A stretch of DNA of 64,000 bases, taken from the NCBI GenBank assembly GCA_029264955.1, contig JARHYC010000007.1, forward strand, positions 11,668-75,667. Reading direction: 5' to 3'. The notes beneath the pieces are model-generated. The model saw only the letters and a program-made list of their open reading frames with translations. It searched no databases and was not told the origin of the DNA. A program made the translations under genes and the position numbers. This DNA comes from Faecalibacterium sp. Its GTDB lineage: Bacteria > Bacillota > Clostridia > Oscillospirales > Ruminococcaceae. Shown piece by piece: positions 36,410 through 58,053 of this stretch. Within the stretch, counting starts at the first letter, position 1. The number at the start of each line of letters is the position of its first letter.

Positions 36410-36417
36410 TCTAAATC

Positions 36418-36688: not shown

Positions 36689-39600
36689 ATGTGTGTGAAA
36701 TTAAGGAAGGCTTTGGCAACCCTGTTAGCGGCGGTAATGCTGATGGGTGTGTTGCCAGTAAATGTTTTGGCGGCAGAAGGCGAAATTAAACCTTTTGCAG
36801 AAGAATCCAAGAGCGAAGTGAGTGTAGGGGAGCTGGAAACGGAACCTACTGCGGAAGACACAGAACTCGAAATTGGTACAGAAAATGCTGATTTGGACGT
36901 GACTGCAGAAGAACCTGTGGTCACTCCGTCTGTTGAGGAGGCAGAGGAGGAAGCTGTCGCAGACGAATCGGAGATTGAAACGTACGCTGCTGTAGACATG
37001 GGGGATGCCTCCCATGATATCCCGGTGGAGGGAATCAAAGTTACCGCAGGCGATTCGCAGTCTGGTGAAGGTCCAGAGAAAGTTTTGGATGGTCAGGATG
37101 CCATGTGGCATACAAATTGGAATGGTTCGCCGTCGGAAAAGCACTGGATTCTGTTTGATTTGGGCAAGGATTATGCAGTAAGCGGTTTGCGTTATCTGCC
37201 CCGTCAGTCTCAGCAGAACGGTATCATTACCAAATACGAGATTTGGGGCAGTGTAGACGGTAAGACGTTCTCTAAGGTTGCAACTGGTGACTGGGCAGCG
37301 GACACAGCGTGGAAAACGGCATCGTTTGGCCCTTATGCGGCACGCTATATCGCACTCAAGTCGGTGCAGGGCATTGGCGGGTTTGCATCTGCTGCAGAGA
37401 TTCGTATTACGCAGGTAGAAGATGAAAATGCCTATGAGGTTGCCAGCTTCACGCAGGAAGCACACGGCGGCTGGCAGATTGCTCCTGGTTCTGGTACTGG
37501 TACAATGACCTTTGCAGAAAACCAGATGGAACTGTTTGCGAAAGGTGATACTGGAAATACGGCATACTGGGATGCAAATTCTCCGATGCTGGAAGCAGGT
37601 TTTGTAGAAGCGGTCATTACGCCGGTTGCTACGGATCGTTTTGCACTGCTGTATCGCTATACGGATAAGGACCATTACACCGGCGTCAGCTATGACGCTG
37701 GCAATTGGGGTTGGTGCGGTAATAATGGCAACAAATGGGGCAATCTGACCCAGGATGCAAGCTATGCACCAAAGGCAGGCGAAGCATTTACGCTGCGTGT
37801 TGCGTTTGAAGGTGCCAACGTGACTGTTTTTGCAAATGGCACACAGGTTGCACATGGTGCGATCAACGACGGCGCAATCAATCAGACGAAGGGTCACGTT
37901 GGTTTCCGTGTGTGGGGCGATGGCAGCGAGGCTACGCGTGGTCACATTAAGGTCAGCAGTGTAAAGATGGGCACGGTCAGCGCACAGCCATTGCCCAAGC
38001 CGGAAAAGCCGGTAGACCCTGTTGACGAAACCGATAAAGATGGTAACTACTTGATTACCTTTACGGATGCCGCACGCCGCGGCGGTCTGCATTTGCTGTC
38101 TGGTGATGGTACGGTCACTTTCCAGGATGGCGAAGGCGATAACGGTTATGCTGTTGTAGCAAAGCAGGACGAAGCTACCACGAAGGCAGTTTTTGTGGCA
38201 GATCGTGCTCCGGTTACGGAGAATGGTTTCCTGGAAGCGGATGTGACGAACCAGTCTGGCGGACGTTTGGGTTTGTTGCTGCGTATACAGGATAACGGAA
38301 ACTATGTTGGCGTTACATATGACGTTGGCAAGTGGGCAATTACCAAGAACGGCAGCAATATCACAGAGTTTGACGCGGGTGGCTGGGGTAAAGGCCAGAA
38401 AAAGCACATCCGTGTGGATTTTGCCGGCAATAAGATCACGGTGACGATAGATGGTTCACAGGTGTTCTCTCAGGAACTGCCGCAGCTGGCAGGTACTGGT
38501 GCTGGTAAGGTCGGTGCTGTTGTCTGGGGTTACTCCAATGGCGATAACCAAGGTAAGGCAAAGATCGATAATGTGGTTGTCGGAAAGCGTGTTGCCGTGG
38601 ATGTCAGCCCAAAAGAATATTCCCTTACTTATAAAGAAGCGGGCAAAACGGCGCTGAAGTTTGTTCTGGGGGAGACCTTGGCAAACAATGCGCTGACTAC
38701 CGTTAAGATTGGCAATCAGGAACTGGTAAAGGGTACGGATTATACGCTGACTGGCAACAGCCTGCGTCTGGAAGGCAGCCTGATTACTGAAGAAATGAAG
38801 CAGGCCGGCGGCACCAAAATCACTATGCTTTTTGCTGACGGTTTTGAGACTACGGTCAATGTGTTGATTCAGGCACAAGCACAGAAAACACAGATCAACT
38901 ACGTTCGCGACTTTACCACGGATCCCACCAAGGGTGAAAACCCGATGAAGCTGGCTTCCGGTAGTGCGAAGGTTGCTTATGATGCACAAAAACAAGCACT
39001 GGTGATCACGGGTGCAAATAGCGCAATGCTGGTGGATCAGGCAGCGCCGAAGCTGAAGAACTACGATGTGGAAATGACCTTTAATCTGCGTACCGATTCC
39101 GGTACATTTGCCGTCGTCGGTCGTCAGGAAGGTGCTGACTATGTAGCAGCAGGTCCCCATAACAGCGGCGGAATTGGCTGGCGTGTATTTTCCAATACGG
39201 GCGCAATCGATGTGCCTAACTATGAGGATGGCAACCAGATGTTTGGCAACCGTACCGTGCCATACAAGGTGCGTGTACGCTTCTTGGAGAAGAACGTAAT
39301 CATCTGGGTGGATGATTACGAAATGTGGTCTGGTACTGCAGATTGTTTGACTGGCGGCAATGGTTTACCCGGCCTGATGGTCAATGGCGCAGAACTGGAA
39401 CTGCTGGATTTCCGTGTCACCTCTGTGAACCTGCCGGAAGCGGAGGAAACCACCGGGGCAGAGCACCAGATTCATTCTGATAAGCTCACCGTAACGATGG
39501 ATGAATCCTTCCCGCGGGTCATCCGTTATACCATGGATGGTAAGACCCTGCAGGGTCAGGAAATTCCTTACTATGTGATCGAACTCAACAATAAGGAATA

Positions 39601-42600
39601 CCGCCCGCAGGTTACAGCAGAATTTACGCAGGATAGTGCAACCTATCATCTGAATGTAGAGGTTGCTCCGGAAAAGAATGTTTCTCTGGATGCTGTTTTT
39701 ACCGTGGCAGACAACGTCCTGCAGATGAAGCTCAAGAATATTCAGGACGAGGCTTACCCGCTGTACAATATCAACTTCCCGGTGCAGAGTCTGGTTTCAG
39801 TTTCTTCTGAGCAGGCTGGCGCAGAGCTGCGTGCGGCTAACTACACAACGTCGGAGCAGCGTTTGGATCTGACTACACGCCCGGCGGGTGATATGTACGA
39901 GTCTGCATCTATCGTTGTGCTTTCCAACAACGAGCTGGGTGCAGCAATCAACAACGAATCCTATAACGGTCACCGTGGCATTTCCTATCAGACCATGCGT
40001 ATTGGTGAGCGCACGACGACTGGTGTGTGGAGCACGGGTTTCCCGTATCGCGGTCTGGATAAAAAGGTCATGTTCGCTGAGCCTTGGGTAAAGGTTGCCA
40101 TTACCGGTGACCGCAATGAAGATGGCAAGGTGGATTTCCAGGATGCAGCAATCGCTCGCCGTGACGACTGCCAGAAGGACGGCTGCAAGGCAGATGCTTT
40201 TGGGTATGAAACGGTCATGGGCAGCTATAACACCATCGCAATGAACGTAGGCAGCGCAGCACAGTATCCCTTCCTGCGCATCCTTGATAACGTGAAGAAA
40301 ATGTCCCTGGGTCTGGATGATTTCCCGCAGACGGTTATTATCAAGGGCTATAATGGCCAGGGACATGACTCCAATAACAACGATTTTGCAAACTACAATC
40401 AGGCAGCCGGCGGCCTGAAAGACTTTAAGGCATTGCTGGCAGAATCCGAAAAGTATAACACAAAGGTCGGTATTCATATCAATGAAACCGAAACCTACCC
40501 CGAAAGTACTACCTACGGTAGACTGCATACTGCTTTCGGCGGATGGCCCTGGTACGACGTGGCACGTCTGATTCACCATGATAATGACTCTCTGGATGCT
40601 ACGGCGGATGGTCTGCAGGGGCGTTTGGACAAGCTGAACGAAGATACTGATCATATGCTGGATCTCATTTATGTGGACGTTTACCACAAGACCCGCTGGC
40701 CGATGTACACGTTGGTTTCCAAAATCAATGGCATGGGTATGGCTATGGCAACTGAGTACCCCAGCGCTGTAGATAAGCAGAGCGTTTGGGCACACCATAT
40801 TGGCGGCCATATCACGCAGGATAATCTGGCAGGCAACCTGACTCGTTTTGTCAACAACCAGTATCAGGATATCTTTGGTATGAGCGGTCTGTTCCGTGGC
40901 ACCAGCCGTGTGGCGGGTATCAATGGCTGGCAGAACGCATCGGACTACTACGCAGCACAAAAGCACTTTTTCACCAGTGTGCTGCCGAACCGCTTCCTGA
41001 CGCAGTATCCGATTATGCGCTGGGAAAATGCAAATGAAGTTGTCTTGGGTCAGAACATGAATGTTGTGACTAAGATGGAAGGCAACACCAATGTTATCAC
41101 GCTGGACGGCCGTGAGGTTGCCCGCGGTGACAAGATTTTTATCCCGTATACCGTAGACGGCGTGGAGAAGATTTACCACTGGAACCCTGCAAAGGGCGAA
41201 ACCACTTGGACCCTGCCGGTTTGCTTTGATGGGCAGACCTCTGTCAAGGTATTCAAGCTAACCGATATGGGACGTACAGAAATGCGTGAAATTGCTGTTG
41301 AAGGTGGAAAGGTAACCATTCCTGCTGAGGCAAACACGGCATACGTCATCTACAAGGGCGATGCAAAGGTGGAGAACACCGGCAGCCTGACTGGTTATGA
41401 CTGGGGTCAGGGCGGCTTTGTAAAGGATGCTGGCTTCGACAGTCACACGGAAGGCTACGGCTGGACTGCTACGAATGGTACGTTTGAGAATAACAACCAT
41501 GGCAACACCTATCTGGTTATGCGCGGTGCGCAGGATGGCTCTGCAGAGCAGATCATTTCCGGTCTGACACCCGGTAAGAGCTATCAGGCTTCTGTTTGGG
41601 CAGAGGTAAACGGAAAGACTGCAACCATCGCGGTACGCGATGGCGAAACCGAGCTGGCAAGCAACCATATGGAACGCAGCAATGTGCAGTATGGTATTCA
41701 TCACACCGATAAATACAAGCGCAATTTACAGCGTATCTGGGTTGAGTTCACCGCTCCGGCTTCCGGTAGTGTAACTCTGGCACTGACCGGCACGCAGGCA
41801 ACCGGTGAAAAATCCTATGTAAACTGGGATGACGTGCGTGTTGTGGAGCACACCCCGTCTGACACCAAGGGACATGACTTCTATGAAGACTTTGAGGCAG
41901 TAACCGAGGGCTATGGTCCGTTCGTTTCTACCGAGTCCGATACCAGCCACCTGTCCGAAACCAACAAACCGCACACATTCGATACGATCAATGGTCGCTT
42001 CTCGCTGAAGACTCGTGCAGGCGATTATATGCGCACTCTGCCGCATACCCTCCGCCTGAAGCCCAATACGGACTATACATTGGGTTTGCAGTATATTGCA
42101 GGAGGTGCAGGTCAGGTCTTTACTGTTTCGGTGAAATCGGATTTGGCAGCGGAAGCTGGCGCAAAAGATGCGGTGGCTGCCTCTCAGGTATGTACCGCTG
42201 TAAAAGACTGGGGCAAGAACCAGCCGCTCAAGCTGAACTTTACCACTGGTGACTATAATGACTACTATGTAGAAATCAAGTGCAACGGTGGCATTAAAGA
42301 ATACGCTGTGGACGATTTCTATGTGGATGAAGTCACGATTGCTACAAAGGAAAGCTTGAAGGCACTTTATGATGCGTGCGCGGCATTGCAGCAGGATGCT
42401 TACACGCCGGAAAGCTGGAGCCAGCTGACCGAAAAGATGGAGGCAGCAAAGGTTGTTCTGGACAAGGAAGATGCAGTACAGGAAGAAATTCAGGCAGCAC
42501 AGGATGCTTTGCAGGCGGCAATGGATGCTTTGGTCGCTTACGCAACGGCAGATGATATTGCACGTTTGAATGCTGTGATTGCACAGATGCAGGATGTTCC

Positions 42601-43975
42601 CGCTGACCAATATGCACAGGATGCACAGTGGGATGCGTTCCAGAAGCAGATTGCTGAAGCACAGAAGCTGGCTGGTACCGACAAGGTAACCGTTCAGCAG
42701 GTGGATGAAATGATCCATGCGCTGGAAAACGCAAAGAATGCACTGCATAGTCTGATCAATAAGGATGAACTGAAGAAACTGTATGATTTCTGCGAAGAGA
42801 TTCCTGCAAATGATCTTATGGATGGCAACGAGGCGGTAGAGTTCCTGCGTGCGCGTTCTGCGGCAGAAAAGATCCTGAAGGATGAGAATGCAAAGCAGAG
42901 CGATGTGGATAAGGCAGGCAAAGATTTGACTGAAGCCTACAATAAGATTGTTCCCAAGCGCACGACCAACGAAGGTCATGTAGATGCCGCTATCGTAACA
43001 GAGTTGGCACAGAAGCTGGCAATTGCCAAGCAGGTAAAGAATTCCGGCAAGGCATTGAAGAAGGCAATCGCAAAGGCCGAAAAGGCAAGTGAACCGCTGG
43101 CAACTTGGAAGTCTGTTGTAGAAGCACTGGATGCACTGGATGCAAATGTCGCAACCTTGACCGTTATCACAGAGGGCGAACAGACAGTAATTTATGTCGC
43201 AGTAGATGAGAAGCTGGGCGCAGCCCTGCCGAAAGATCCTGTAAAGGATGGATTTACCTTCACGGGCTGGCAGGACGAAAATGGTGAGCCGGTTACCGCT
43301 AAGACAAAGGTTCAAGGCGATATGACCATTATGGCAACATGGGAGCCGGCAGCAGGTATTAAGTATGTGGTAAACCATGTACAGGCTAATATCGGCGATC
43401 CTGATAATGGTACGATTGTGGCACAGGAAACCCTGTCTGGCATCAGCGGTGAGCTGACTAAGGCAGTTGCTAAGAGCTACGAGGGATTTACTGCTCGCGA
43501 AATTGAGCAAAAGACCATTGCAGCAGATGGCAGCACCGTAGTCACCGTTTGGTATGCACGCAATGTATACACCGTGATAATCGACGGCGTACAGCATGAA
43601 GTCGAATATGATGCACCTTTGGGCAATACGCTGCCCGAAAACCCGAAGAAGGATGGCTTTACCTTTGATGGATGGAAGGACCAAAACGGCAATGCAATCA
43701 CTGCGGAAAGCAAAGTGCAGGGTAATCTGGTGCTTATCGCACAGTGGAAGGCAGTGAATGTACCGGATACGCCGGATCAGCCGGATGTCACTCCGAGTGA
43801 AAAGCCAACGAATCCGACAGATCCATCTGATAAACCTGAAGAAAAGCCCGCCGCGCCTTCCGCAGCACCACAGGCATCGGCTACAGGCGATACTTTCCCC
43901 ATGACGCTGGTTGTGGCTTTGATGCTGGCTTCTTTGGCTGGTATGGCGATCATCATTAAAAAGAAACGTTCCTGA
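36689..43975 (+). CDS. Cell-wall-anchored endo-alpha-N-acetylgalactosaminidase (GH101), 2428 aa
   Basis: Signal peptide, CBM32, beta-sandwich modules, GH101 motifs DFQDAAIA, AQYPFL, KGY..QGHDS, HINETETYPE, WPW, YVDV, ATEY; FIVAR, InlB-type repeats, TG sorting motif plus TM plus KKKR. Confidence 0.92.
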   Translation: MCVKLRKALATLLAAVMLMGVLPVNVLAAEGEIKPFAEESKSEVSVGELETEPTAEDTELEIGTENADLDVTAEEPVVTPSVEEAEEEAVADESEIETYAAVDMGDASHDIPVEGIKVTAGDSQSGEGPEKVLDGQDAMWHTNWNGSPSEKHWILFDLGKDYAVSGLRYLPRQSQQNGIITKYEIWGSVDGKTFSKVATGDWAADTAWKTASFGPYAARYIALKSVQGIGGFASAAEIRITQVEDENAYEVASFTQEAHGGWQIAPGSGTGTMTFAENQMELFAKGDTGNTAYWDANSPMLEAGFVEAVITPVATDRFALLYRYTDKDHYTGVSYDAGNWGWCGNNGNKWGNLTQDASYAPKAGEAFTLRVAFEGANVTVFANGTQVAHGAINDGAINQTKGHVGFRVWGDGSEATRGHIKVSSVKMGTVSAQPLPKPEKPVDPVDETDKDGNYLITFTDAARRGGLHLLSGDGTVTFQDGEGDNGYAVVAKQDEATTKAVFVADRAPVTENGFLEADVTNQSGGRLGLLLRIQDNGNYVGVTYDVGKWAITKNGSNITEFDAGGWGKGQKKHIRVDFAGNKITVTIDGSQVFSQELPQLAGTGAGKVGAVVWGYSNGDNQGKAKIDNVVVGKRVAVDVSPKEYSLTYKEAGKTALKFVLGETLANNALTTVKIGNQELVKGTDYTLTGNSLRLEGSLITEEMKQAGGTKITMLFADGFETTVNVLIQAQAQKTQINYVRDFTTDPTKGENPMKLASGSAKVAYDAQKQALVITGANSAMLVDQAAPKLKNYDVEMTFNLRTDSGTFAVVGRQEGADYVAAGPHNSGGIGWRVFSNTGAIDVPNYEDGNQMFGNRTVPYKVRVRFLEKNVIIWVDDYEMWSGTADCLTGGNGLPGLMVNGAELELLDFRVTSVNLPEAEETTGAEHQIHSDKLTVTMDESFPRVIRYTMDGKTLQGQEIPYYVIELNNKEYRPQVTAEFTQDSATYHLNVEVAPEKNVSLDAVFTVADNVLQMKLKNIQDEAYPLYNINFPVQSLVSVSSEQAGAELRAANYTTSEQRLDLTTRPAGDMYESASIVVLSNNELGAAINNESYNGHRGISYQTMRIGERTTTGVWSTGFPYRGLDKKVMFAEPWVKVAITGDRNEDGKVDFQDAAIARRDDCQKDGCKADAFGYETVMGSYNTIAMNVGSAAQYPFLRILDNVKKMSLGLDDFPQTVIIKGYNGQGHDSNNNDFANYNQAAGGLKDFKALLAESEKYNTKVGIHINETETYPESTTYGRLHTAFGGWPWYDVARLIHHDNDSLDATADGLQGRLDKLNEDTDHMLDLIYVDVYHKTRWPMYTLVSKINGMGMAMATEYPSAVDKQSVWAHHIGGHITQDNLAGNLTRFVNNQYQDIFGMSGLFRGTSRVAGINGWQNASDYYAAQKHFFTSVLPNRFLTQYPIMRWENANEVVLGQNMNVVTKMEGNTNVITLDGREVARGDKIFIPYTVDGVEKIYHWNPAKGETTWTLPVCFDGQTSVKVFKLTDMGRTEMREIAVEGGKVTIPAEANTAYVIYKGDAKVENTGSLTGYDWGQGGFVKDAGFDSHTEGYGWTATNGTFENNNHGNTYLVMRGAQDGSAEQIISGLTPGKSYQASVWAEVNGKTATIAVRDGETELASNHMERSNVQYGIHHTDKYKRNLQRIWVEFTAPASGSVTLALTGTQATGEKSYVNWDDVRVVEHTPSDTKGHDFYEDFEAVTEGYGPFVSTESDTSHLSETNKPHTFDTINGRFSLKTRAGDYMRTLPHTLRLKPNTDYTLGLQYIAGGAGQVFTVSVKSDLAAEAGAKDAVAASQVCTAVKDWGKNQPLKLNFTTGDYNDYYVEIKCNGGIKEYAVDDFYVDEVTIATKESLKALYDACAALQQDAYTPESWSQLTEKMEAAKVVLDKEDAVQEEIQAAQDALQAAMDALVAYATADDIARLNAVIAQMQDVPADQYAQDAQWDAFQKQIAEAQKLAGTDKVTVQQVDEMIHALENAKNALHSLINKDELKKLYDFCEEIPANDLMDGNEAVEFLRARSAAEKILKDENAKQSDVDKAGKDLTEAYNKIVPKRTTNEGHVDAAIVTELAQKLAIAKQVKNSGKALKKAIAKAEKASEPLATWKSVVEALDALDANVATLTVITEGEQTVIYVAVDEKLGAALPKDPVKDGFTFTGWQDENGEPVTAKTKVQGDMTIMATWEPAAGIKYVVNHVQANIGDPDNGTIVAQETLSGISGELTKAVAKSYEGFTAREIEQKTIAADGSTVVTVWYARNVYTVIIDGVQHEVEYDAPLGNTLPENPKKDGFTFDGWKDQNGNAITAESKVQGNLVLIAQWKAVNVPDTPDQPDVTPSEKPTNPTDPSDKPEEKPAAPSAAPQASATGDTFPMTLVVALMLASLAGMAIIIKKKRS

Positions 43976-44012
43976 GTTTAGGATTTAGGATGCTTCTGAA
44001 ATAGTTTTGTGC

Positions 44013-44045
44013 AACCCCCTCTGCCCAAAAGCAGAGGGGGTTTTT
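44013..44045 (+). terminator. Terminator after GH101
   Basis: AACCCCCTCTGC / GCAGAGGGGGTT plus Ts. Confidence 0.85.
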
Positions 44046-44291
44046 GCATGGAAAATGACCTTGGATTGTTGCGCTGTGCAAGTAACAGATGAGATGGCTA
44101 GTGTTAATGTGAGCAATAGATTTTTCTAAATGATATTTCCTGCAATAAAGTTGTTAAGCCGGAAGGATTGATTTGGATCAGATATAGAATAAAAAGTGTT
44201 TGTTTCGTTTGACAATAAATGACGATGATAGGATGATGCTTTTTGATATGCAGAAAAGGTTGAACTTTTTCGAAAAAACTTAAAAAAGGTG

Positions 44292-44320
44292 TTGACAGAA
44301 CGCTATTATATGAGTATAAT
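44292..44320 (+). promoter_or_regulatory. Consensus SigA promoter of tRNA-Pro copy 1
   Basis: TTGACA-17 bp-TATAAT. Confidence 0.9.
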
Positions 44321-44361
44321 AAATACTGTTGCTGGCGAACGGAATGTTTGCAAAGGCATGT

Positions 44362-44593
44362 ATCCGGGTGTAGCGCAGTTTTGGTAGCGCGCTTGAATGG
44401 GGTTCAAGAGGCCGTGAGTTCGATTCTCGCCACTCGGACCAAAAAGGACTGATCTTTTGATCAGTCCTTTTTTTGTTTTATCTAAGTGTTAAGCGGGTTT
44501 GCAGGGGTTGTGAGAAGCATTCTTATGTTGTGCTAAGGCTTGTCTGAGAGCAGCCAGAGACACGTCATAATGAATGCGTAATGAATGGAGCAA
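44362..44593 (+). repeat. 232-bp direct repeat, left copy (tRNA-Pro + terminator + about 120 bp)
   Basis: Matches 50412-50642 with 4 substitutions and a 1-nt T-tract indel. Confidence 0.97.
44364..44441 (+). tRNA. tRNA-Pro(GGG), copy 1
   Basis: CCGGGTG/CACTCGG acceptor, CTTGA-ATGGGGT-TCAAG anticodon arm, GTTCGA, A73, CCA. Confidence 0.96.
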
Positions 44594-44905
44594 ACTGGAT
44601 CATACGCTATCTATGGAACCTGGGAACATAGCTAAGAATACGGATTTGGAAAGTTTGCCGACTACATTTGTATTCAGATTTACAAGAATAGACAGATGGC
44701 GATCAGCGTCTGACGGGAATAAGTACATTGCTGCTGGAGGTTAGGAATAACAGCAACATATGTCTGTAAGATGGTACTTGTGCAAGATACATAAAGTATC
44801 ACACAATCTCAAGGTTGAAAACAAAAGCGTTGACGTATACACTAAAAATATATGTTGTTGATGAAGAAATACTGTTCATCTAGAGAAGAAAAAAGGAGAT
44901 GTAGT

Positions 44906-47900
44906 ATGAACAAAAGAGGCGCAGCACTGTTTTTAGCAGCGGCGATGACTTTTTCATCCATCTTACCGGGGCAGACGGCAATGGCAGCAGGAGAAAGCTA
45001 TGTAACGGATGCACAGCTTACCGCTGCGGTTGTACAAGCCCCCAAAAAGGATGAAGTTATCCCGGACGCAAATCAGTATGAGTATCAAAAACAGGAATTG
45101 GCAGCTTTCTGTCACTTCGGCCCCAATACGTTCAATGAGATTGAATGGGGCGAGAAGTACGGCAAGCGGCCTCCGGATGATATTTTCAAACTGGAAACGA
45201 ATTTCGATGCGGAGAAACTGGTATCCTCACTGAAAGAGGCTGGTTTCAAAAAGTTGATTGTCACGGCAAAGCACCATGACGGTTTCTGTATCTGGAACAG
45301 TGCCTACACGGACTATGACGTGGAGTCCACCAGCTATGCAGGCTATAATTACGATGGTATGGGCGGCGATATTCTGGCTGAAATTTCCGCTGCTTGTACC
45401 GCTCATGATATGGACATGGGTCTGTATCTGTCCCCTTGGGATATCCATGACGAAAGCTACGGCTATTATGATGCAAACCATAATCCGACGAGTAAGGAAA
45501 ACGATGTCAAGGATTATAACGAGTACTATAATAACCAGCTGCAGGAAATTCTAGGCAACCCTAAATATGGCAACAAAGGTCATTTTAAGGAAGTTTGGAT
45601 GGACGGTGCAAAAGGCAGTGGTGCCAATGCGCAGGAATACGACTTTAAAACCTGGTTCGATACCATTCAGAAGAACGAGGGCAAGAAGGCAGGCTTTGAT
45701 GCAGACTGCTTGTTGTTTGGTGCAGAATCTTACTCTACAGTAAGATGGATCGGCAACGAAAACGGTTATGCCAATGAGGAAACCTGGTCCAAGTCTAAGA
45801 TTGATCGGGCAAATAATACCATTGACAGTAATCACACCGGTGCGCAGGGCACGTTCATTGGCTTTGAAAATGGCAACCAGTGGACCGTCCCGGAAGTAGA
45901 TGCCCGCATTACTTCTGGCTGGTTCTGGGGGACTCGCAAGAATTCGCCCAAGAGCATTCTGGATTTGGGGAATATGTACTTTAACTCGGTAGGTCATAAT
46001 GCACCACTGCTGCTGAATATTCCACCAAATGATCAAGGCGGTGTAGATCAGGCAATTCTGGACCGCGTCGCAGAGTTTGGTACTAACATTTCCGAAACAT
46101 TCCGGTTGAATCTGGCGAAAGATGCAGCGGCATCGGCTAGCGAAGTGCGCGGAAATGCGCTCAGCTATAAGCCCGGTAATGTGCTGGACGGCAAGGATGA
46201 TACCTATTGGACGGTCAACGATGGTACAACTACCGGTACGCTGCAGTTGGACCTGAAGGAGCAGAAGACCTTTGACGTGGTTTCCATTGAGGAAGCAATT
46301 GAATTTGGTCAGCGCATCAAGTCTTTTAAGGTAGAGTATAGTTTGAATGGTAGCGCATGGAAGACATTCGATCAGGGTACGACTGTTGGCGCAAAGCGTC
46401 TATGCCGGAAAGCTCCGGTTAAAGCAGATAAGCTGCGTATTACAGTTACGACCACCAGCGCAGTACCCATGCTTTCCGAAGTAGGCATTTTCAAGGCAAG
46501 TCAGGGCTTTGAAAAGGCAAAGGGTGCGCCCGCAGGCATGACAGTCATCGACATCAACGATAATGGAGATGTTGGATTTAAGTTTGGTAGCAACTGGCAT
46601 CCGGAAACGGGTGACCAGTATCTAAATGGCACCAACTCGTGGGCAAATGCCGGTACAAACTTTGAAGTAAAGTTCAACGGTTCGAAGATTTATCTGGTTG
46701 GTACAAAGGATCCCAACCACGGCACGGCGAACATTCTTATCGACGGCAAGCCGGCAGGCAGTATTGATACCCGCGCAAATTCCCGCGCAGTGGGTCAGAT
46801 TATTTTTGCTTCGGAAGACCTGAAGGATGGTTCCCACACTTTGCGTCTGGAAACGACCAACAAGGCAATCGGTATCGAAGGCGCTTATGTGATCAATAAC
46901 GGCGGGAAAGGCATGGTCGGTATTGATCAGGCTTCCTATACTATGAACGAAGAATCTACTATGGATGTAAAGCTGGTTCGTGTAGGCGGCTCCACTGGTG
47001 ACATCACCGTAAACTTTGCACCCAACCCCGGTTCTGCGATTCAGGATGATTATAATACAGAGCTGAACCATAACATCACCTTTAAGAATGGTGAGACAGA
47101 GAAGCTGGCCCGTGTGGAAACCAGAAGAAATACAAAACCCACTGGTAATCAATATTTTACTGTGGCACTGTCTACCACGGATAAAGACCTGATTCTGGGC
47201 TTTAACGCGGCCGCACGCATCAATATCATTGATGCAGAAGGTCTCACGGTAGAGAAGCTGGAGACACTGCTGAACGAATGCCGTGCGCTGAACGAAGTAA
47301 ACTACCAGACAGAAAGCTGGAACAAGCTGACCGCTGCTATGCAGACAGCAGAAGAGCGTCTGGCAGCAGGGAATCTGTCCGGTGAACTGTTGCGAACCAC
47401 TTATGATGCATTGGAAAAGGCCAAGACAGCTCTGGTAGCACGTGACCACTATGCAGAAAACGACCGTTTTGTATTCCCCACAACGGCCAATACAGAAGTC
47501 ACGTTGGAAGCTGAACTGCTGGAACGTCACAACAATACGGAGGGCGACAAAAACTGGCCGCTACAGGTGACTCCTGCTGACTGGGCAAGCAACGGCAAAT
47601 TCCTGAACTGCCTGAACAGCAATGATCAGGCAAAACTGTACTACACTGCGAACAGAACTGGTACCTATTCCGCGGTTGTGACGTATCGTAGTGGTGACTC
47701 CGCAAATGCAATCTTCTGGGAAGAAGCAAATGGCAACATCACCGCAGGCAATGTGACCGCAGGTGCTTCGGATAATGCAGGCGCAACCCATACCGCAAAC
47801 TTTGCGTTCGAGGTAACCAAGCCGGGCGATGGTGTGCTGGTATTTAAGGGCGGTGAGAAGAATGCACCGCAGATCGACAAGATTGTGATTACTGCATCTC

Positions 47901-50089
47901 AGCTGGATCAGCAGGTATTCCAGGTGACCAAGAATGCAGGTGCAAATGGCGTGATTGAAGGTCCGGATACCGTGAACGAGGGCGAGAATGCTGTGTTCAC
48001 AATCACGCCTAACGAAGGTTACGCTGTGCAGGACGTAAAGGTGAATGGTGCCTCTGTGGGTGCAGTGACGACCTATACTGCAGAAAATGTGTCTGCAAAC
48101 ATTACCATTGAAGCAACCTTTGGAAAGAATGAATACAAGTACACTGTGGCAGATCCCTTTGTATTCCCCACAGAACTGAATCAGACTGCTGTTCTGGAAG
48201 CTGAGCATGCAACGCTGCATAATTCTGGTGATGATGAACAGTGGAAGCTGGAAGTTGCAGATGGCGATTGGGCAAGTAACAAGAAATTTGTGAACAGCCT
48301 GAACCGTGGCGATGAAATCACCATTCCGTATCGGGCAGCTGTGGCAGGCACCTACATGGTAACGGTAACTTTCCGCAGCGGCAGCGATAAGAATTATCTG
48401 GATTGGACAGAAGAAAGTGGCAAGATCACAGCAGGTACGACGCCTGCAGGTCATACCGATGCCAATGTAACGCAGACCAAGAGCTTTGAAATGATTGTCA
48501 ATACGGCTGGTGCAGGTGTGCTGAAGTTTGCACCGAAGACAGAAAATTCCCCGCAGATTGATAAGTTTGATATTGTGCTGAAGGAAGCTGCTGCGCCTGT
48601 AGATCCGGAAGATGCAACCAGCGATGCACTGGATTATGTGACCCAGGCAGTTACCGCAGGTGATCAGATGGACGGACACACCGCAGATGCAGTCAACGAT
48701 AAGGATGCAAATAGCTACTGGTCTACCAACTGGAACAGCAAGCCCAATGAGGAAGAACGCTCTGAGAAATTCTATATTCAGATGGATCTGGGCGAAACTA
48801 AGCCGGTAGCCGGTGTGCGTGTCCTGCCCCGTCAGGGCGACAGTATGGGCGATGGAAATGGTACGCCTACCAAATTTACAATCAAGGTCAGCAACGATGG
48901 CACAGAGTGGACGGATGTACTGACCACAGAGCGTCCTGCAAATGCAGAAGGCTGGCGCAACTGGTACATCGTACGTTTTGAAAAACCTGTAGATGCACGC
49001 TATGTTCGTTATGAAGCTGTGAATACTTACAGCGATGTAGCTGACAATATGGATCTGCATATGGCTCTGGCCGAAATCCGTGCAATCAAGCCTGCGCAGG
49101 AACCGCAGAACCCCGATCAGGTTGCAGCAGATGCTGTTATCGGTAAGATCAATAGTATTGGTAATGTTACGCTGGAATCTGAGCATGCAATTACGAATGC
49201 ACGCAATGCATATAATGCACTGACGGATACACAGAAGGCAATGGTAACGAATCTGTCTGTACTGGAAAGTGCAGAGGCAAAGCTGGCAGAGCTGAGAGAT
49301 GCAGCCGCACAGGCAGAAGCAGACAAAGTAGCAGCGGCTGAGGCGAGTGCAAAGATTGACGCCATCGGCGAAGTTACGTTGGATTCTGAGTCTAAGATTA
49401 CAGATGCCCGCAACGCTTGTGATGCACTGACAGATGCACAGAAGGCTCTGGTTGGCGATAAGATGGCTGTGCTGGAAGCAGCAGAAGCAAAACTAGCAGA
49501 ACTGAAAGATGTAGCCGCGCAGACAGAAGCAGACAAGGCCGCAGCCGCAGCGGTGAATGCAAAGATGGATGCCATCGGAGCAGTTACGCTGGATTCTGAG
49601 ACCAAGATTAACGATGCACGCAATGCGTATAATGCACTGACAGATGCACAAAAGGCTCTGGTTAAGAATCTGAATGCACTGGAAACAGCTGAGAATACCT
49701 TGAAGGCAACAAAGGCGAAGAAAGCTGAGCTGGATGCTGCAATCAAGGAAGCCGAAGGCAAAAAGTGTACGGATTATACGGACGCAAGCTGGAAGATATT
49801 TGCAGAGAAACTGGATGCAGCTAAGGCTGTCGCCGCAAAGAAGGATGTTGCATTAGCTGAGTATGAGAATGCAGCCAACGCACTGAAGATTGCTGAAGAT
49901 CAGCTGGCGGTAAAGCCCGCAGACTCTGTAAAGCCAGTTGATTCGGTGCAACCCACGAATCCCACTACACCCAAAAAGCCCAATGCAAACAGCCCTGTAA
50001 CAGGGGATAACTCGAATGTAATGTTCTGGGCAGCAATGGCTATGTTGAGTGCTGGAGCAATGGTACTGCTTAAGAAGAAAGCAAAGTAA
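44906..50089 (+). CDS. Cell-wall-anchored alpha-L-fucosidase (GH29, 1,3/1,4-type-like), about 1727 aa
   Basis: HFGPNTF, KHHDGF, YLSPWD, VWMDGA and RWIGNENG; CBM32, Calx-beta, FIVAR, two related CBM-like modules, helical repeats, PVTG sortase motif; start at 44906 after AAAGGAG. Confidence 0.93.
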   Translation: MNKRGAALFLAAAMTFSSILPGQTAMAAGESYVTDAQLTAAVVQAPKKDEVIPDANQYEYQKQELAAFCHFGPNTFNEIEWGEKYGKRPPDDIFKLETNFDAEKLVSSLKEAGFKKLIVTAKHHDGFCIWNSAYTDYDVESTSYAGYNYDGMGGDILAEISAACTAHDMDMGLYLSPWDIHDESYGYYDANHNPTSKENDVKDYNEYYNNQLQEILGNPKYGNKGHFKEVWMDGAKGSGANAQEYDFKTWFDTIQKNEGKKAGFDADCLLFGAESYSTVRWIGNENGYANEETWSKSKIDRANNTIDSNHTGAQGTFIGFENGNQWTVPEVDARITSGWFWGTRKNSPKSILDLGNMYFNSVGHNAPLLLNIPPNDQGGVDQAILDRVAEFGTNISETFRLNLAKDAAASASEVRGNALSYKPGNVLDGKDDTYWTVNDGTTTGTLQLDLKEQKTFDVVSIEEAIEFGQRIKSFKVEYSLNGSAWKTFDQGTTVGAKRLCRKAPVKADKLRITVTTTSAVPMLSEVGIFKASQGFEKAKGAPAGMTVIDINDNGDVGFKFGSNWHPETGDQYLNGTNSWANAGTNFEVKFNGSKIYLVGTKDPNHGTANILIDGKPAGSIDTRANSRAVGQIIFASEDLKDGSHTLRLETTNKAIGIEGAYVINNGGKGMVGIDQASYTMNEESTMDVKLVRVGGSTGDITVNFAPNPGSAIQDDYNTELNHNITFKNGETEKLARVETRRNTKPTGNQYFTVALSTTDKDLILGFNAAARINIIDAEGLTVEKLETLLNECRALNEVNYQTESWNKLTAAMQTAEERLAAGNLSGELLRTTYDALEKAKTALVARDHYAENDRFVFPTTANTEVTLEAELLERHNNTEGDKNWPLQVTPADWASNGKFLNCLNSNDQAKLYYTANRTGTYSAVVTYRSGDSANAIFWEEANGNITAGNVTAGASDNAGATHTANFAFEVTKPGDGVLVFKGGEKNAPQIDKIVITASQLDQQVFQVTKNAGANGVIEGPDTVNEGENAVFTITPNEGYAVQDVKVNGASVGAVTTYTAENVSANITIEATFGKNEYKYTVADPFVFPTELNQTAVLEAEHATLHNSGDDEQWKLEVADGDWASNKKFVNSLNRGDEITIPYRAAVAGTYMVTVTFRSGSDKNYLDWTEESGKITAGTTPAGHTDANVTQTKSFEMIVNTAGAGVLKFAPKTENSPQIDKFDIVLKEAAAPVDPEDATSDALDYVTQAVTAGDQMDGHTADAVNDKDANSYWSTNWNSKPNEEERSEKFYIQMDLGETKPVAGVRVLPRQGDSMGDGNGTPTKFTIKVSNDGTEWTDVLTTERPANAEGWRNWYIVRFEKPVDARYVRYEAVNTYSDVADNMDLHMALAEIRAIKPAQEPQNPDQVAADAVIGKINSIGNVTLESEHAITNARNAYNALTDTQKAMVTNLSVLESAEAKLAELRDAAAQAEADKVAAAEASAKIDAIGEVTLDSESKITDARNACDALTDAQKALVGDKMAVLEAAEAKLAELKDVAAQTEADKAAAAAVNAKMDAIGAVTLDSETKINDARNAYNALTDAQKALVKNLNALETAENTLKATKAKKAELDAAIKEAEGKKCTDYTDASWKIFAEKLDAAKAVAAKKDVALAEYENAANALKIAEDQLAVKPADSVKPVDSVQPTNPTTPKKPNANSPVTGDNSNVMFWAAMAMLSAGAMVLLKKKAK
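49118..49700 (+). repeat. Three tandem 69-70 aa helical repeats in GH29
   Basis: IGxVTLxSExxIxxARNAxxALTDxQKAxV units with periods of 207 and 210 bp. Confidence 0.9.
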
Positions 50090-50140
50090 GGTTGTGTAGA
50101 ATAACAAAGAAAGTCAATCGGTTTCTTTCTGATATAGACG

Positions 50141-50172
50141 GAAATGCCGCAGGTATATGCCTGCGGCATTTC
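50141..50172 (+). terminator. Terminator after GH29
   Basis: GAAATGCCGCAGG / CCTGCGGCATTTC. Confidence 0.85.
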
Positions 50173-50342
50173 TGTTTGTGTCGGTATCAGCATAGTTATT
50201 AGGTACCAATGGATTGTCATGGGGACTTGATATGGATGCAATTATGTTTATGTAAACTAGCACTTGATTGGAAAAAAGGGGAATCCTGTGACGAAGAATG
50301 AATATGATACGCATTTTAAGATATATATTTTTCGTCAAAGTA

Positions 50343-50371
50343 TTGACAGAATGTCCCAATGCGTGTATAAT
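50343..50371 (+). promoter_or_regulatory. Consensus SigA promoter of tRNA-Pro copy 2
   Basis: TTGACA-17 bp-TATAAT. Confidence 0.9.
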
Positions 50372-50411
50372 AACAAACGTTGTTAGTGAACGATGTGTTC
50401 ACTATAGTAAC

Positions 50412-50642
50412 ATCCGGGTGTAGCGCAGTTTTGGTAGCGCGCTTGAATGGGGTTCAAGAGGCCGTGAGTTCGATTCTCGCCACTCGGACCAAAAAGGACT
50501 GATCGTTTGATCAGTCCTTTTTTGTTTTATCTAAGTGTTAAGCGGGTTTGCAGGGGTTGTGAGAAGTATTCTTATGTTGTGCTAAGGCTTGTCTGAGAGC
50601 AGCCAGTGACACGTCATAATGAACGCGTAATGAATGGAGCAA
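50412..50642 (+). repeat. 231-bp direct repeat, right copy
   Basis: Offset 6050 bp from the left copy. Confidence 0.97.
50414..50491 (+). tRNA. tRNA-Pro(GGG), copy 2 (identical to copy 1)
   Basis: Same 78-nt sequence including CCA. Confidence 0.96.
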
Positions 50643-50824
50643 TTTCATTCATTATGCTATCGATTTGAACAGGAAATCTGGTAACAAATTTCCATATCCG
50701 ATTCATTATGCCGCAAAAAACAGAAGAAAAGGGCACAAGATTTCACTGCTGGATAAGCGTATTGTACGAAATATATTACGATAAGTGATAAAGGGATGTG
50801 CTTTATCGGAACATTGCAAAGAAT

Positions 50825-50862
50825 AAAAAGGTCGGTCTGCAGTTTGGCAGACCAACCTTTTT
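50825..50862 (-). terminator. Terminator of the ExbBD-like operon
   Basis: AAAAAGGTCGGTCTGC / GCAGACCAACCTTTTT. Confidence 0.8.
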
Positions 50863-50911
50863 ATAGCAGTGCATAGCACACAAAATAAAGTAAAAAGTTT
50901 GTAGCTGGATG

Positions 50912-51289
50912 TTATGCAATATAAGAAATGGAAAGGCTGTCAAGTACATCCAGCAGACGATTGTATGCTTTAAGCGAAGCGTTGTCATCGGTGATTTCAA
51001 CCACAAAGCCGGGTTCCATTTCAGCAAGAATTTGGGTGAGCGCATCTAATTCAATGCGTTTGTTTCCATAGGAATAATCATTATCTACGACAGAAATTGA
51101 AATGATTTTTTGGTCATTCACACTATGCTCTGATTCGGATGAAGAAACTGGGGGCTGTGTGATGCTGGAAGTGCTACTGGGCTGCGATTCTGCACCTTTT
51201 CCTGCACCAAGCCCGAATCCAAGCCCAAGGAGGGAAAGCAGGATCATCATAGCGGCGACAAGAATCAGCAGTTTCTTTGCCTTTTTCAT
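50912..51289 (-). CDS. Single-TM protein with Ser/Pro linker and ExbD/TolR-like C-terminal domain (no TM aspartate)
   Basis: IISISVVDNDYSYGNKRIELDALTQIL...VVEITDDNASLKAYNRLLDVLDSLSISYI follows the ExbD soluble-domain pattern; start 51289 or 51298. Confidence 0.5.
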   Translation of the reverse strand: MKKAKKLLILVAAMMILLSLLGLGFGLGAGKGAESQPSSTSSITQPPVSSSESEHSVNDQKIISISVVDNDYSYGNKRIELDALTQILAEMEPGFVVEITDDNASLKAYNRLLDVLDSLSISYIA

Positions 51290-51290
51290 T

Positions 51291-51845
51291 TTATTCATCC
51301 TTTCCAGTTGAAATGTCGGTTTCTGAAGCATAAAAATAAGGATATTGATGTTTTAACTGCGATAGCTCTTTTTTGATGCTTCGATAAGTTGAGGCCGTGC
51401 CCGGCTGGGAACCATCCAGGATAAAATCGCAGAAAATTGTATCGGTTGCAGAGTATCCAGATTGTGATAAGCTCTGACTGAGCAGTGCAGTAAGATTCTC
51501 TGTGGTGTGAAGTGTAGTAACTGCTTCGTCGCCGTGAAGAATGCGTATAGAGGGCGTACTGTCATTCATGTCAAGAATCAATTTTAAGTTGCAACTTCGA
51601 TTGAAATCGATCATTGCCTGAATGTTAGAGGCTCTTCCGGCATCTTCACTTTCAATTATTTCCAAGGCATCATGCAGTTGCTCTTCTTTCCTAGTCAGTT
51701 CTGCTCTGATTTTTTCATTTTGTTGGTCGAGCTTTTCTTTTTGATCGACAACCTCCATGCTGCTGAACAAAATAAAGAAAAATAAGATAATCAATGTAAT
51801 GTCGAGCAGGGGTGTAAAATCTAAAAATATCTCTTTTTTCTTCAT
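51291..51845 (-). CDS. ExbD/TolR/MotB-type stator small subunit
   Basis: LDFTPLLDITLIILFFFIL with the conserved TM Asp, then a coiled coil and soluble domain. Confidence 0.75.
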   Translation of the reverse strand: MKKKEIFLDFTPLLDITLIILFFFILFSSMEVVDQKEKLDQQNEKIRAELTRKEEQLHDALEIIESEDAGRASNIQAMIDFNRSCNLKLILDMNDSTPSIRILHGDEAVTTLHTTENLTALLSQSLSQSGYSATDTIFCDFILDGSQPGTASTYRSIKKELSQLKHQYPYFYASETDISTGKDE

Positions 51846-51846
51846 A

Positions 51847-52314
51847 TTAGCTACCAGTTACAGAAGTGTGCATGGACAGGGCTTCTTTTTCCATCTTTTC
51901 CGAAGCTGCGATTTGTTCTTCAATTTCGTTCTGAACGAATGCATGCACAATCTTGAAGAGGATGGAGAAGAGAATGCCCCAGGCGGTAGATGTCAAAGCA
52001 CCAAAAAAGTTGTACTTGATATTTTCCATGTTGCCAGCGGCTAAATTAAGACCTAATAATCCTTTTACGGTACCAAACATGCCAAGGAGAGGAAAAAGAG
52101 AAATTGCGGCAGTAAAAAGATTATAGGCTACGCTCAACTCACCGTGGATATATTTGGTGGTCGCAGCCTCAGGGTTTCGGTCCCAGTCTGCAACGTATGC
52201 CTTTATATGTTTTGCTTTTCGTTTACAAATGCATAAGCAGATCAGTGTGAGTAAAGCGGCAAATAATATATAGCTATCCGTAGTGAAGAGACTTTGAAAG
52301 AGTTTTTTCCACAT
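51847..52314 (-). CDS. MotA/TolQ/ExbB proton-channel family protein (compact, 155 aa)
   Basis: FPLLGMFGTVKGL and FFGALTSTAWGI; 3 TM; GGAGG RBS before ATG 52314. Confidence 0.85.
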   Translation of the reverse strand: MWKKLFQSLFTTDSYILFAALLTLICLCICKRKAKHIKAYVADWDRNPEAATTKYIHGELSVAYNLFTAAISLFPLLGMFGTVKGLLGLNLAAGNMENIKYNFFGALTSTAWGILFSILFKIVHAFVQNEIEEQIAASEKMEKEALSMHTSVTGS

Positions 52315-52612
52315 AATAGGTTCCTCCAATCGTATAATATGTTTATTATACAACTTTTTCCTAAATACGACAATGAAGCGTGCTATGTAAGTCATGCGGC
52401 ATTATAGCCTTGAACAAACGCCAGCATATGTGAGGGAAGAAACAAAAATTCCAATCATAACGGTATAGTTCATGAAATGTAACGGGTAAAAATGATGGAT
52501 ACTACCGGATACTTCTAACTTTAACAAGATGACAAAACTTTGGCAATTTGTTGCAATGACAACCGGATTTGCCGTTTTTGGGGAGATTCGCAAAGGAATG
52601 CGCAAAAGCATA

Positions 52613-52647
52613 AAAAATCCCAGCGGATTATATCCACTGGGATTTTT
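52613..52647 (-). terminator. Terminator after the FGGY kinase gene
   Basis: AAAAATCCCAG / CTGGGATTTTT. Confidence 0.75.
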
Positions 52648-52689
52648 AAAGAAAATCAAATGAAATGTGTTGTAGTGAAGAAGAGTGAA

Positions 52690-55346: not shown

Positions 55347-55411
55347 AGAAATTCAGCTCCTTTCCGAAAAGGCTGCTGCATATGCGCAGCGGCCAGAACA
55401 CAGGTTCGGTC

Positions 55412-56473: not shown

Positions 56474-56492
56474 AAGAAACCTCTCCTTTTTA

Positions 56493-57290: not shown

Positions 57291-57310
57291 GGGATTCGCC
57301 TCCTGTCGGA

Positions 57311-58033: not shown

Positions 58034-58053
58034 GTTAATGATGCACCTTCCGC

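Follow-up and report, generated by a model that had tools for sequence, protein, structure and literature searches.

Architecture of the locus

Two identical tRNA-Pro(GGG) genes, referred to here as copies A and B, lie on either side of the gene for a GH29 alpha-L-fucosidase in the window (the whole 64,000-nucleotide stretch of Faecalibacterium sp. DNA that was analysed), and a GH101 gene precedes copy A. The features of the region are listed below in the order of their coordinates.

36689..43975, + strand: GH101 endo-alpha-N-acetylgalactosaminidase, 2428 aa, upstream of copy A (Pfam)
~44015-44046: GH101's own terminator (from the sequence)
44292..44320, + strand: copy A promoter, TTGACA-17-TATAAT, orthologous to the promoter of the genus's uvrA-linked 'type I' tRNA-Pro
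44321..44363, + strand: copy A 43-nt 5' leader, a hairpin with a GCGAAC/GTTTGC inner stem (fold -11.2 kcal/mol, z -2.2)
44364..44441, + strand: tRNA-Pro(GGG) copy A, CCA encoded (ARAGORN and Rfam)
44441..44480, + strand: copy A intrinsic terminator, 14-bp stem, TTTT loop and T-run (sequence scan)
44481..44593, + strand: 3' flank F1 of copy A, the non-coding part of the 98% tract, a putative gene-conversion patch (flank comparison)
44906..50089, + strand: GH29 alpha-L-fucosidase, 1727 aa from an ATG behind a GGAG ribosome-binding site, between the tRNA copies (Pfam)
50131-50182: GH29 terminator, an inverted repeat
50343..50371, + strand: copy B promoter, TTGACA-17-TATAAT, orthologue of the sister copy 2 promoter, with 28/29 positions identical (97%)
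50372..50413, + strand: copy B 42-nt leader, a perfect AGTGAAC/GTTCACT hairpin (fold -10.9 kcal/mol, z -3.1)
50414..50491, + strand: tRNA-Pro(GGG) copy B, identical to copy A (ARAGORN and Rfam)
50491..50529, + strand: copy B intrinsic terminator, 14-bp hairpin, GTTT loop and T-run (sequence scan)
50530..50642, + strand: 3' flank F1 of copy B, to the end of the 98% tract (flank comparison)
50643..50719, + strand: 'F1-long', an older, diverged continuation of the flank (69% to the sister copy 1 flank)

ARAGORN, Rfam and alignment bear out every detail observed in the preliminary description of the pair, namely two tRNA-Pro(GGG) genes with CCA, 6,050 bp apart, in repeats that differ by four substitutions and one indel. 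The repeat (44362-44593 and 50412-50642; start-to-start spacing 6050/6049 nt) covers the full tRNA gene and 150 nt more, is 98% identical over 232 bp with its single 1-nt indel in a T-run, contains a 93-nt perfect block and is present just twice in the 1.89-Mb genome. Each tRNA scores 58.2 bits in Rfam against a gathering score of 29, ends in ACCA and has the cloverleaf score, Pro(GGG) anticodon and encoded CCA of a functional bacterial tRNA gene. Nothing besides these two tRNAs rose above threshold when Rfam was run on 43.9-51.0 kb, with no RNA family match in the 113-nt flank. Promoter scanning and folding likewise uphold the perfect promoters and leader hairpins reported earlier: both promoters match the sigma-70 consensus at 12/12 positions, with no other perfect match in the 7.1 kb scanned, and the distance from the -10 element to the tRNA is 43 nt in copy A and 42 nt in copy B. 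With a predicted promoter and terminator of its own for each, the two copies are predicted to be functional paralogues, each an independent transcription unit.

The placement of GH29 between the copies, with GH101 just upstream, was also confirmed by Pfam. GH101 begins with a signal peptide and ends in a sorting-like tail (SATGD, a hydrophobic stretch and KKKRS). The GH29 ORF opens at 44852, so that the product is 1727-1745 aa long, and encodes a signal peptide, F5/8-C, Calx-beta and InlB-B-like repeats and a tail of SPVTGD, a hydrophobic stretch and KKKAK. Only two of 91 congeneric species, this one and its sister, carry GH29, and its nearest relatives outside the two are found in Lachnospiraceae (65-68% aa identity). 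GH29 is horizontally acquired cargo; its composition displays no GC anomaly along the gene, and its relatives in other taxa have no tRNA-Pro adjoining. The preliminary description had noted that no integrase accompanies the unit, and indeed no recombinase (integrase or transposase) domain is present in the 20 flanking ORFs scanned and the two enzymes, between 22 and 61 kb. As a positive control, the integrase of another congener (G045) scores PF00589 at 1.3e-27.

The tRNA-Pro(GGG) genes of the genus

A complete, separately promoted second tRNA had been regarded as the anomaly of this locus. Across the 91 species two full tRNA-Pro(GGG) genes are instead the norm, and most species have two that are 100% identical and lie at separate loci. 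By promoter and leader, two upstream types are distinguished across the genus, type I and type II; the former lies 100-200 nt behind uvrA in about 50 species. The type I gene is recognizable by its leader of 42/43 nt and its two-tier leader hairpin, both of which are shared by copies A and B and by all type I genes of the genus, and one congener (G013) matches window positions 44273-44443 at 80%. Since both promoters and leaders follow this design, neither is foreign; the proposal of a foreign promoter on the second copy does not hold, copy B having the native type I geometry in its TATAAT, its leader of 42-43 nt and its two-tier hairpin. We also considered whether copy B is the orthologue of the type II gene of the genus and rejected this assignment, as the leader measures 42 rather than 34 nt, the -10 element is TATAAT rather than TATACT and the leader motif is type I throughout.

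The closest relatives of this genome (G000), as judged by UvrA identity, are the sister species G086 (98%), G009 (97%) and G058 (91%), all others being at or below 84%. This genome and the sister each possess just the two local tRNA-Pro(GGG) copies and are without type II; G058 has one type I copy in a different context, with neither GH29 nor GH101, and G009 has a degenerate 3' tRNA remnant. On the basis of these four genomes, of which G009 (81%) and G058 (87%) are incomplete, we infer that type II was lost in the clade before the re-duplication. The genes that surround and follow the type II tRNA in G013 are, in this genome, scattered over several contigs.

The sister species is about 88% identical in nucleotide sequence to this genome (~12% diverged) and has the order GH101-tRNA-...-GH29-tRNA in collinear form. 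Far upstream of the tRNAs, copy A is 74% identical to sister copy 1 and copy B 78% identical to sister copy 2, as against 43% between A and B; the copy A promoter is 76% identical to that of sister copy 1, and a clade-specific GTGAAC/GTTCAC leader stem is common to copy B and both sister copies. The sister thus carries both copies with orthologous promoters, and the duplication predates the species split, which speaks against a recent integration of the circle suggested at first. Fixed synteny of both tRNAs among relatives had been named beforehand as an observation contrary to that suggestion; it is found in the sister for the tRNAs and GH29, and not for the other cargo: in the sister an S8 protease lies between the tRNAs, and GH20/GH3/GH84 follow the second tRNA.

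A bounded tract of near-identity

Within the 113-nt flank F1 past the terminator, the paralogues A and B are 97% identical, while the orthologous comparisons A-1 and B-1 give 73% and the identity to sister copy 2 is ~49%. Paralogue identity thus exceeds orthologue identity inside the tract, while the sequences outside it are orthologous copy by copy between the species, and a weaker, older homology between A and B extends past the tract on both sides. This combination, with near-identical paralogues bordered by weaker homology, points to a recent gene-conversion patch. The flank identities indicate that the tract is younger than speciation and that its near-identity would reflect gene conversion, which we infer as the mechanism, rather than the age of the duplication. 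Beyond the tract, the flank of copy B is closer to that of sister copy 1 (69%) than is the flank of copy A (56%), so that further events have to be assumed: copy A would have lost 18 nt, and sister copy 2 its flank. These identities fix neither the direction nor the number of conversion events.

Other observations concern the same process. Terminator loops are concerted within each species (TTTT/GTTT here, GAAA/GAAA in the sister), and in five congeners (G013, G020, G023, G010 and G018) the type I and type II paralogues share the tRNA, the terminator and about 65 nt at 93-100% identity, in G013 and G020 at a distance of hundreds of kilobases. A Logan contig from a second strain (99.8% identical), the only other conspecific fragment that reaches the repeat, has the copy A base within copy B at 50607, one of the four differing sites, a mosaic seen at a single site in a single strain.

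Origin and maintenance of the pair

The feature is real but fairly ordinary, and was not left by the recent insertion of a mobile circle. It is probably an old local duplicate of the tRNA-Pro(GGG) unit overlaid by a recent gene-conversion patch, and not a currently mobile element. The genus normally has its type I gene directly behind uvrBA and its type II gene elsewhere, the latter being absent from the small low-GC clade to which this genome belongs. In the proposed course of events, a unit of ~0.5 kb, comprising ~25-30 nt upstream of the -35 element, the leader, the tRNA, the terminator and ~300 nt of 3' flank, would have been duplicated locally in the last ancestor that this species shares with its sister, bringing the isoacceptor for CCC and CCU back to two copies. 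The corresponding codons, CCC and CCT, make up 7405 of 15049 Pro codons (49%) and dosage may be the selective reason for keeping two copies. Horizontally acquired GH29 would have come to lie between the two copies, and the unconstrained flanks would have diverged after the duplication. More recently, intrachromosomal gene conversion would have overwritten the tRNA, terminator and 113-nt flank of one copy and so produced the 232-bp tract of 98% identity; conversion may likewise keep the paralogue terminators alike in many congeners. The turnover of cargo (the S8 protease, GH20/GH3/GH84 and a downstream ExbBD/frl block) could be put down to commonplace indels and rearrangements, the region being a variable one.

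The duplication itself could have originated in a Campbell-type event or in a tandem duplication followed by insertion. The first of these, taken as an explanation of the whole locus, posits an ancestral circle with GH29 and the type I tRNA-Pro unit of a related strain, a single homologous crossover within the tRNA unit and a cassette that RecA could still delete or amplify. GH29 and the second tRNA copy occur in the same two of 91 species, which permits arrival in one event, and the cargo is flanked by direct repeats from the promoter to about +300 nt with no recombinase nearby. As would be expected of a Campbell product, copy B keeps a long flank continuous with the DNA downstream, but in the sister it is copy 1, and not copy 2, that has kept it. 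Measured against the G058 outgroup, the copy B leader is more derived than those of A and 1, as might be expected if the donor had diverged; however, no donor with GH29 beside tRNA-Pro was found, and the far-upstream sequence of copy B is found in G086 alone. Judged by the minimal homology lengths known for RecA, the 93-nt perfect block and 232-bp repeat are adequate, yet the 98% identity seen today arose after the event and is uninformative about it. Both copies are fixed in two species that are ~12% diverged, and a tandem tRNA duplication followed by insertion leads to the same end state.

No empty site, circle or array was observed among relatives and conspecific contigs. The empty single-tRNA allele anticipated in relatives did not materialize, the sister having both copies and G058 its single copy in a different context, and no empty site was found in conspecific sequence. 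Exact look-up of the ExbD-like protein and of a small downstream ORF returned just one 2.7-kb Logan contig each, and that of DUF1836 three contigs, all ending inside GH101; no record was returned for GH29, and a metagenome scan with a 30-nt F1 pattern gave no match. On balance we regard the circle as an improbable origin. A more elaborate form of it, in which Lachnospiraceae-derived GH29 and the second tRNA arrived together from a related strain by homologous recombination in the ~0.5-kb unit, and in which this unit is a portable, integrase-free anchor for single giant glycosidase or protease genes that conversion keeps recombination-competent, with the cassette still losable or amplifiable, is likewise improbable. 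The related suggestion of a tRNA-anchored route by which giant glycosidases accumulate is not borne out in this genome, whose other giant enzyme genes, S8 (contig C2) and GH3/GH84 (contig C29), are not tRNA-linked.

It is very unlikely that a decayed integrative element targeting tRNA-Pro(GGG) left the repeats behind as its att sites. The gene is a real integration target in the genus, as G045 (L064) carries at the same tRNA a phage-like island of 13.5 kb that encodes a tyrosine integrase and is marked by a repeat of only 52 nt of the 3' tRNA, and the degenerate 3' tRNA remnant of G009 may be read in the same way. The repeats described here, by contrast, take in the full tRNA, the 5' leader and promoter-level homology, unlike an att duplication, and the scanned ORFs hold neither an integrase nor a remnant of one. 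The 98% tract does end inside an inverted repeat, which is kept in sister copy 1; F1-long contains an inverted repeat, TAATGAAT-N11-ATTCATTA, plus another ATTCATTAYG copy. Tyrosine-recombinase cores have spacers of 6-8 nt, whereas the inverted repeat has 8-nt arms and a spacer of 11-12 nt in both species. A scan for the motif detected no cluster elsewhere in the genome, and no related elements with the same ends were found; a recombinase core site at the tract end was therefore judged unlikely.

An assembly artefact, in which one tRNA locus was mistakenly assembled twice or GH29 put in the wrong place, is scarcely credible even in a draft genome of 39 contigs where repeats are common misjoin sites, since the copies have different unique upstream sequences and five internal differences, the same order recurs in the sister genome, which was assembled independently, and the Logan contig from another sample joins the copy B flank to the same downstream genes. 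That contig stops exactly 30 nt short of the next base specific to B, where the graph of a k=31 assembler would branch if the repeat were present in that sample too.

Relation to known systems

The old duplicate with its conversion patch can be compared with four known situations. First of all, tufA and tufB of Salmonella undergo concerted evolution through gene conversion. Concerted evolution via intrachromosomal gene conversion has also been described for duplicated bacterial genes in rrn operons (PMC8022953). The present pair resembles these in that paralogues exceed orthologues in identity within a bounded tract while the unique flanks are orthologous between species, possibly in mosaic alleles among strains (here one site in one strain) and in exchange between direct or distant copies. 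It differs in that the converted unit is a single 78-nt tRNA gene with a non-coding 3' flank, that the tract runs 113 nt beyond anything obviously selected and that the copies bracket an acquired 5.2-kb gene. Second, as in a Campbell merodiploid, direct repeats of shared homology flank foreign cargo without the need for a recombinase gene and with the potential for RecA-dependent loss or amplification; here, however, both copies are fixed across speciation and the identity of the repeats would come from later conversion. Third, the locus shares with tRNA-targeted islands, in which a tyrosine integrase acts and att is a 3' segment of the tRNA, the same tRNA and variable adjoining cargo, the G045 island being a true example; here the duplication extends to the whole gene, promoter and leader included, no integrase is present and the junctions at which the cargo differs fall elsewhere than at the tRNA 3' end. 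Finally, two identical copies of a major Pro isoacceptor, each with a consensus promoter and a terminator and conserved in number across the genus, are reminiscent of multi-copy tRNAs kept for dosage, except that in this clade the uvrA-linked gene has been re-duplicated locally to give the second copy, which elsewhere in the genus is usually the type II locus.

These comparisons carry a caution, as a promoter-bearing tRNA duplicate around acquired cargo mimics a new integrase-free mobile cassette, whereas comparison reveals an old pair of paralogues with what is probably a fresh conversion patch. They also suggest selection for two copies, given that a low-GC, small-genome lineage of the Faecalibacterium-labelled genus has swapped the usual second tRNA-Pro(GGG) locus for a local re-duplicate. 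In principle the 232-bp direct repeat of 98% identity is a substrate for RecA; it makes GH29 a plausible target of RecA-dependent loss, which could affect the release of fucose from mucin at the level of strains. The locus is an integrase-free, plastic and rearrangement-prone island of giant secreted mucin enzymes, and the lineage has assembled in it the wall-anchored, mucin-type GH101 and GH29, joined in the sister by S8, GH20, GH3 and GH84.

The tRNA-Pro pair and its repeat

The preliminary description of this stretch stands as an account of the sequence, since the tRNAs, the repeat differences, the promoters, the terminators, GH29 and GH101 are all present, but its interpretation, a circle of glycosidase, foreign promoter and tRNA integrated by single crossover, is supported only in part. 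We consider it likely that an old native pair of paralogues, kept for dosage and overwritten by a recent gene-conversion tract, surrounds an acquired GH29 gene in a plastic island of mucin enzymes. The arrangement is of a known kind, of which this is a new example. The main features, with copies A and B the upstream and downstream tRNA-Pro(GGG) genes, are as follows.

22332–24392, uvrB ORF
24337–27288, uvrA ORF
44292–44320, promoter of copy A, TTGACA-17-TATAAT, 12/12
44364–44441, tRNA-Pro(GGG) copy A (ARAGORN; Rfam 58.2 bits)
50343–50371, promoter of copy B, TTGACA-17-TATAAT, 12/12
50414–50491, tRNA-Pro(GGG) copy B (ARAGORN; Rfam 58.2 bits)

The repeat (44362–44593 and 50412–50642) aligns with 4 substitutions and a 1-base indel within a T-run; its two abutting families are spaced 6050 and 6049 nt apart, its longest uninterrupted match covers 93 nt, and the genome (G000; 1.89 Mb in 39 contigs) has no copy beyond these two. 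Across the 7.1 kb scanned, the two promoters are the only perfect TTGACA-17-TATAAT matches; the −10 box lies 43 nt from the tRNA in one copy and 42 nt in the other, and A–B homology starts about 25–30 nt upstream of the −35 box. A 14-bp terminator hairpin follows each tRNA, and GH101, tRNA A, GH29 and tRNA B have separate terminators. The GH29 α-L-fucosidase between the copies and the 2428-aa GH101 upstream both carry signal peptides and sorting-like C-terminal tails. These tails, SATGD in GH101 (43900–43975) and SPVTGD in GH29 (50000–50089), each with a hydrophobic stretch and then a Lys-rich end, differ from canonical LPXTG and may represent a variant sortase signal.

A native gene pair

The genus is represented by 91 species genomes; most of them, and nearly all complete ones, carry two 100%-identical tRNA-Pro(GGG) genes, often separated by hundreds of kb. 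Their upstream regions sort into two types: type I combines TATAAT with a hairpin-containing leader of some 43 nt starting TGTCGCC, and type II combines TATACT with a leader of 34 nt starting AGCTGTGAGCG. In about 50 species the type I gene lies 100–200 nt behind uvrA, as judged from uvrA and tRNA coordinates. Since, in addition, the type I promoter region of the congener G013 gives an 80% match to 44273–44443, copy A is orthologous to the uvrA-linked type I gene and has come to lie 17 kb away from uvrA. The type II gene is absent from G000 and from the sister species G086, each of which has just two local copies, all four with type I geometry.

The hairpins described as covarying are real, and they are a mark of the genus's own design. 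Every type I leader folds as a two-tier hairpin whose inner stem varies in sequence between species, so that covariation extends across the genus. Copy B and both G086 copies have GTGAAC/GTTCAC in common, and the related species G058 has GTGAGC/GCTCAC. The second promoter, taken at first to be foreign, is native by this shared stem and by its type I geometry. A hairpin is present in all tRNA-Pro(GGG) 5′ leaders of the genus (window 44321–44363 and 50372–50413; loci L008–L053), with the type I outer helix pairing as far as the last few nucleotides ahead of the mature 5′ end. No Rfam family matches it; it may influence RNase P processing or precursor stability.

tRNA-Pro(GGG) decodes CCC and CCU, which together account for 49% of the Pro codons of long ORFs. 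Retention of two copies genus-wide, with a second copy re-created in a clade lacking type II, suggests selection for dosage. The G000 assembly has only 53 tRNA genes; tRNA-Pro(UGG), Ala(UGC) and Ile(GAU) are absent and probably belong to rRNA operons left unassembled in the draft.

Age of the duplication and probable gene conversion

UvrA identity to the window species is 98% in G086, 97% in G009, 91% in G058 and at most 84% in all others; GC content is 46–52% in this clade vs 55–66% in the other members sampled. The window is collinear with G086 over 22.4–44.0 kb (88–94% nt identity), and the order in G086 is GH101, tRNA-Pro (copy 1), an S8 protease stretch (8 kb), GH29, tRNA-Pro (copy 2), GH20, GH3 and, further on, GH84.

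Segment identities from a four-way alignment of copies A and B with sister (G086) copies 1 and 2
Far upstream: A–B 43% (background level); A–sister 1 74%; B–sister 2 78%
Promoter: A–B 69%; A–sister 1 76%; B–sister 2 97%
Leader: A–B 57%; A–sister 1 62%; B–sister 2 81%
tRNA: A–B 100%; A–sister 1 100%; A–sister 2 100%
Terminator: A–B 97%; A–sister 1 90%; A–sister 2 87%
F1 (113 nt past the terminator): A–B 97%; A–sister 1 73%; A–sister 2 49%

Because the upstream segments are orthologous copy by copy, the second copy and its own promoter were already present in the common ancestor of G000 and G086, which dismisses a recent integration. Downstream, the terminator loops are similar within species and different between them (TTTT/GTTT in the window, GAAA/GAAA in G086). 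Past 44593 and 50642 the flanks of A and B remain related to each other and to that of G086 copy 1, to which copy B is 69% and copy A, with an 18-nt deletion, 56% identical. Concerted evolution classically leaves such a pattern, a tract embedded in older homology in which paralogues are closer than orthologues, and on these identities we read the 98% tract as a gene-conversion patch.

A 2.7-kb contig from the Logan collection of public assembled contigs (SRR14857255) is 99.8% identical to 50594–53321, carries the copy A base (A, not T) at 50607, which is one site in one strain, and has its left end exactly 30 nt before 50624, the next B-specific base. An assembler with k=31 would break 30 nt from a B-specific base if the sequence to its left were repeated; from breakpoint and base together, a second strain probably also has the repeat, apparently with a mosaic allele. 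A metagenome scan with a 30-nt F1 pattern gave no match. Furthermore, type I and II paralogues are 93–100% identical over tRNA, terminator and about 65 nt in five congeners (G013, G020, G023, G010 and G018), hundreds of kb apart in G013 and G020, and homogenisation of the tRNA-terminator unit is thus recurrent; such sharing was not seen in G001 or G005.

An ATTCATTAYG/CRTAATGAAT cluster at 50615–50710 (and 44565–44593) accounts for 5 of the 16 occurrences in the genome. One of its elements is an inverted repeat, TAATGAAT-N11-ATTCATTA; the 98% tract breaks off inside the spacer. The inverted repeat is kept behind sister copy 1 with a 12-nt spacer and could be a protein-binding site.

Acquisition of GH29

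GH29 of G086 is 92% identical (aa) to that of the window. These two of the 91 species alone have an orthologue; no other GH29 in the genus exceeds 44% identity, and the closest relatives outside it (59–68% aa) are in Lachnospiraceae MAGs labelled Lachnoclostridium. GH29 was thus horizontally acquired. Near these outside relatives, no tRNA-Pro was found in the available stretches of the longer loci.

An ancestral unit of about 0.5 kb would have been duplicated before the G000/G086 split. One possible route is tandem duplication, with GH29 inserted later. A single Campbell-type event, bringing GH29 together with the tRNA unit from a related strain, is kept alive by GH29 having the same two-species distribution as the duplication, and we regard it as unlikely. 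The window ORFs scanned contain no recombinase domain. In G045, our positive control, a phage-like island of 13.5 kb occupies the same tRNA gene (L064, G045:C98:77500-92500; tRNA at 766–843) with a tyrosine integrase, an SPP1-type portal protein, terminase and DnaB helicase; its repeat (about 14354–14405) comprises only 52 nt of the tRNA 3′ end, the ordinary att case for tRNA-Pro(GGG). The 232-bp window repeat would in principle be usable by RecA.

Plasticity around the tRNAs

G000 and G086 diverge directly after each tRNA flank. The S8 protease gene, behind copy 1 in G086, has its G000 orthologue on contig C2 (80% nt), and GH3/SNF/GH84, behind copy 2 in G086, are on C29 in G000, which lacks GH20. 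In G000 neither S8 nor GH3/GH84 has a tRNA nearby, and giant enzyme genes are therefore not generally anchored to tRNAs. The S8 subtilase pair (1679 and 582 aa; G000 C2:80394-87114 vs G086 locus L027 3273–10090) is 80% identical vs a genome background of about 88–91%, has no flanking homology and seems, from this comparison, to be relocated or exchanged as one unit.

The segment from 50.6 to 64 kb encodes ExbB/ExbD-like proteins, an FGGY kinase, BtpA, a SIS-domain protein, an esterase, two GntR regulators, a PfkB kinase and an amino-acid permease. For positions 50643–64000, G086 (99% complete) offers no DNA match and other congeners hardly any; this is species-specific accessory DNA starting at the tRNA flank.

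G009 departs from the window immediately past uvrA. This MAG (81% complete) yielded no intact tRNA-Pro(GGG), only a degenerate 3′ half from the anticodon loop onward (G009:C52; L057 142–254, − strand), joined directly behind an ORF with a CxxC-rich tail, with terminator and G058-type flank kept; an old att scar or a deletion junction would have this appearance. G058 has one type I copy in a different context, without GH101 or GH29. Between uvrA and the type I tRNA-Pro, the 17 kb of the window (27289–44291) hold an FAD/FMN flavoprotein, an amino-acid ABC transporter, a CBAH-like hydrolase, a DUF1836 protein and GH101, and G058 has a different 19-kb filling; the gap is a clade-specific hotspot of gene gain.
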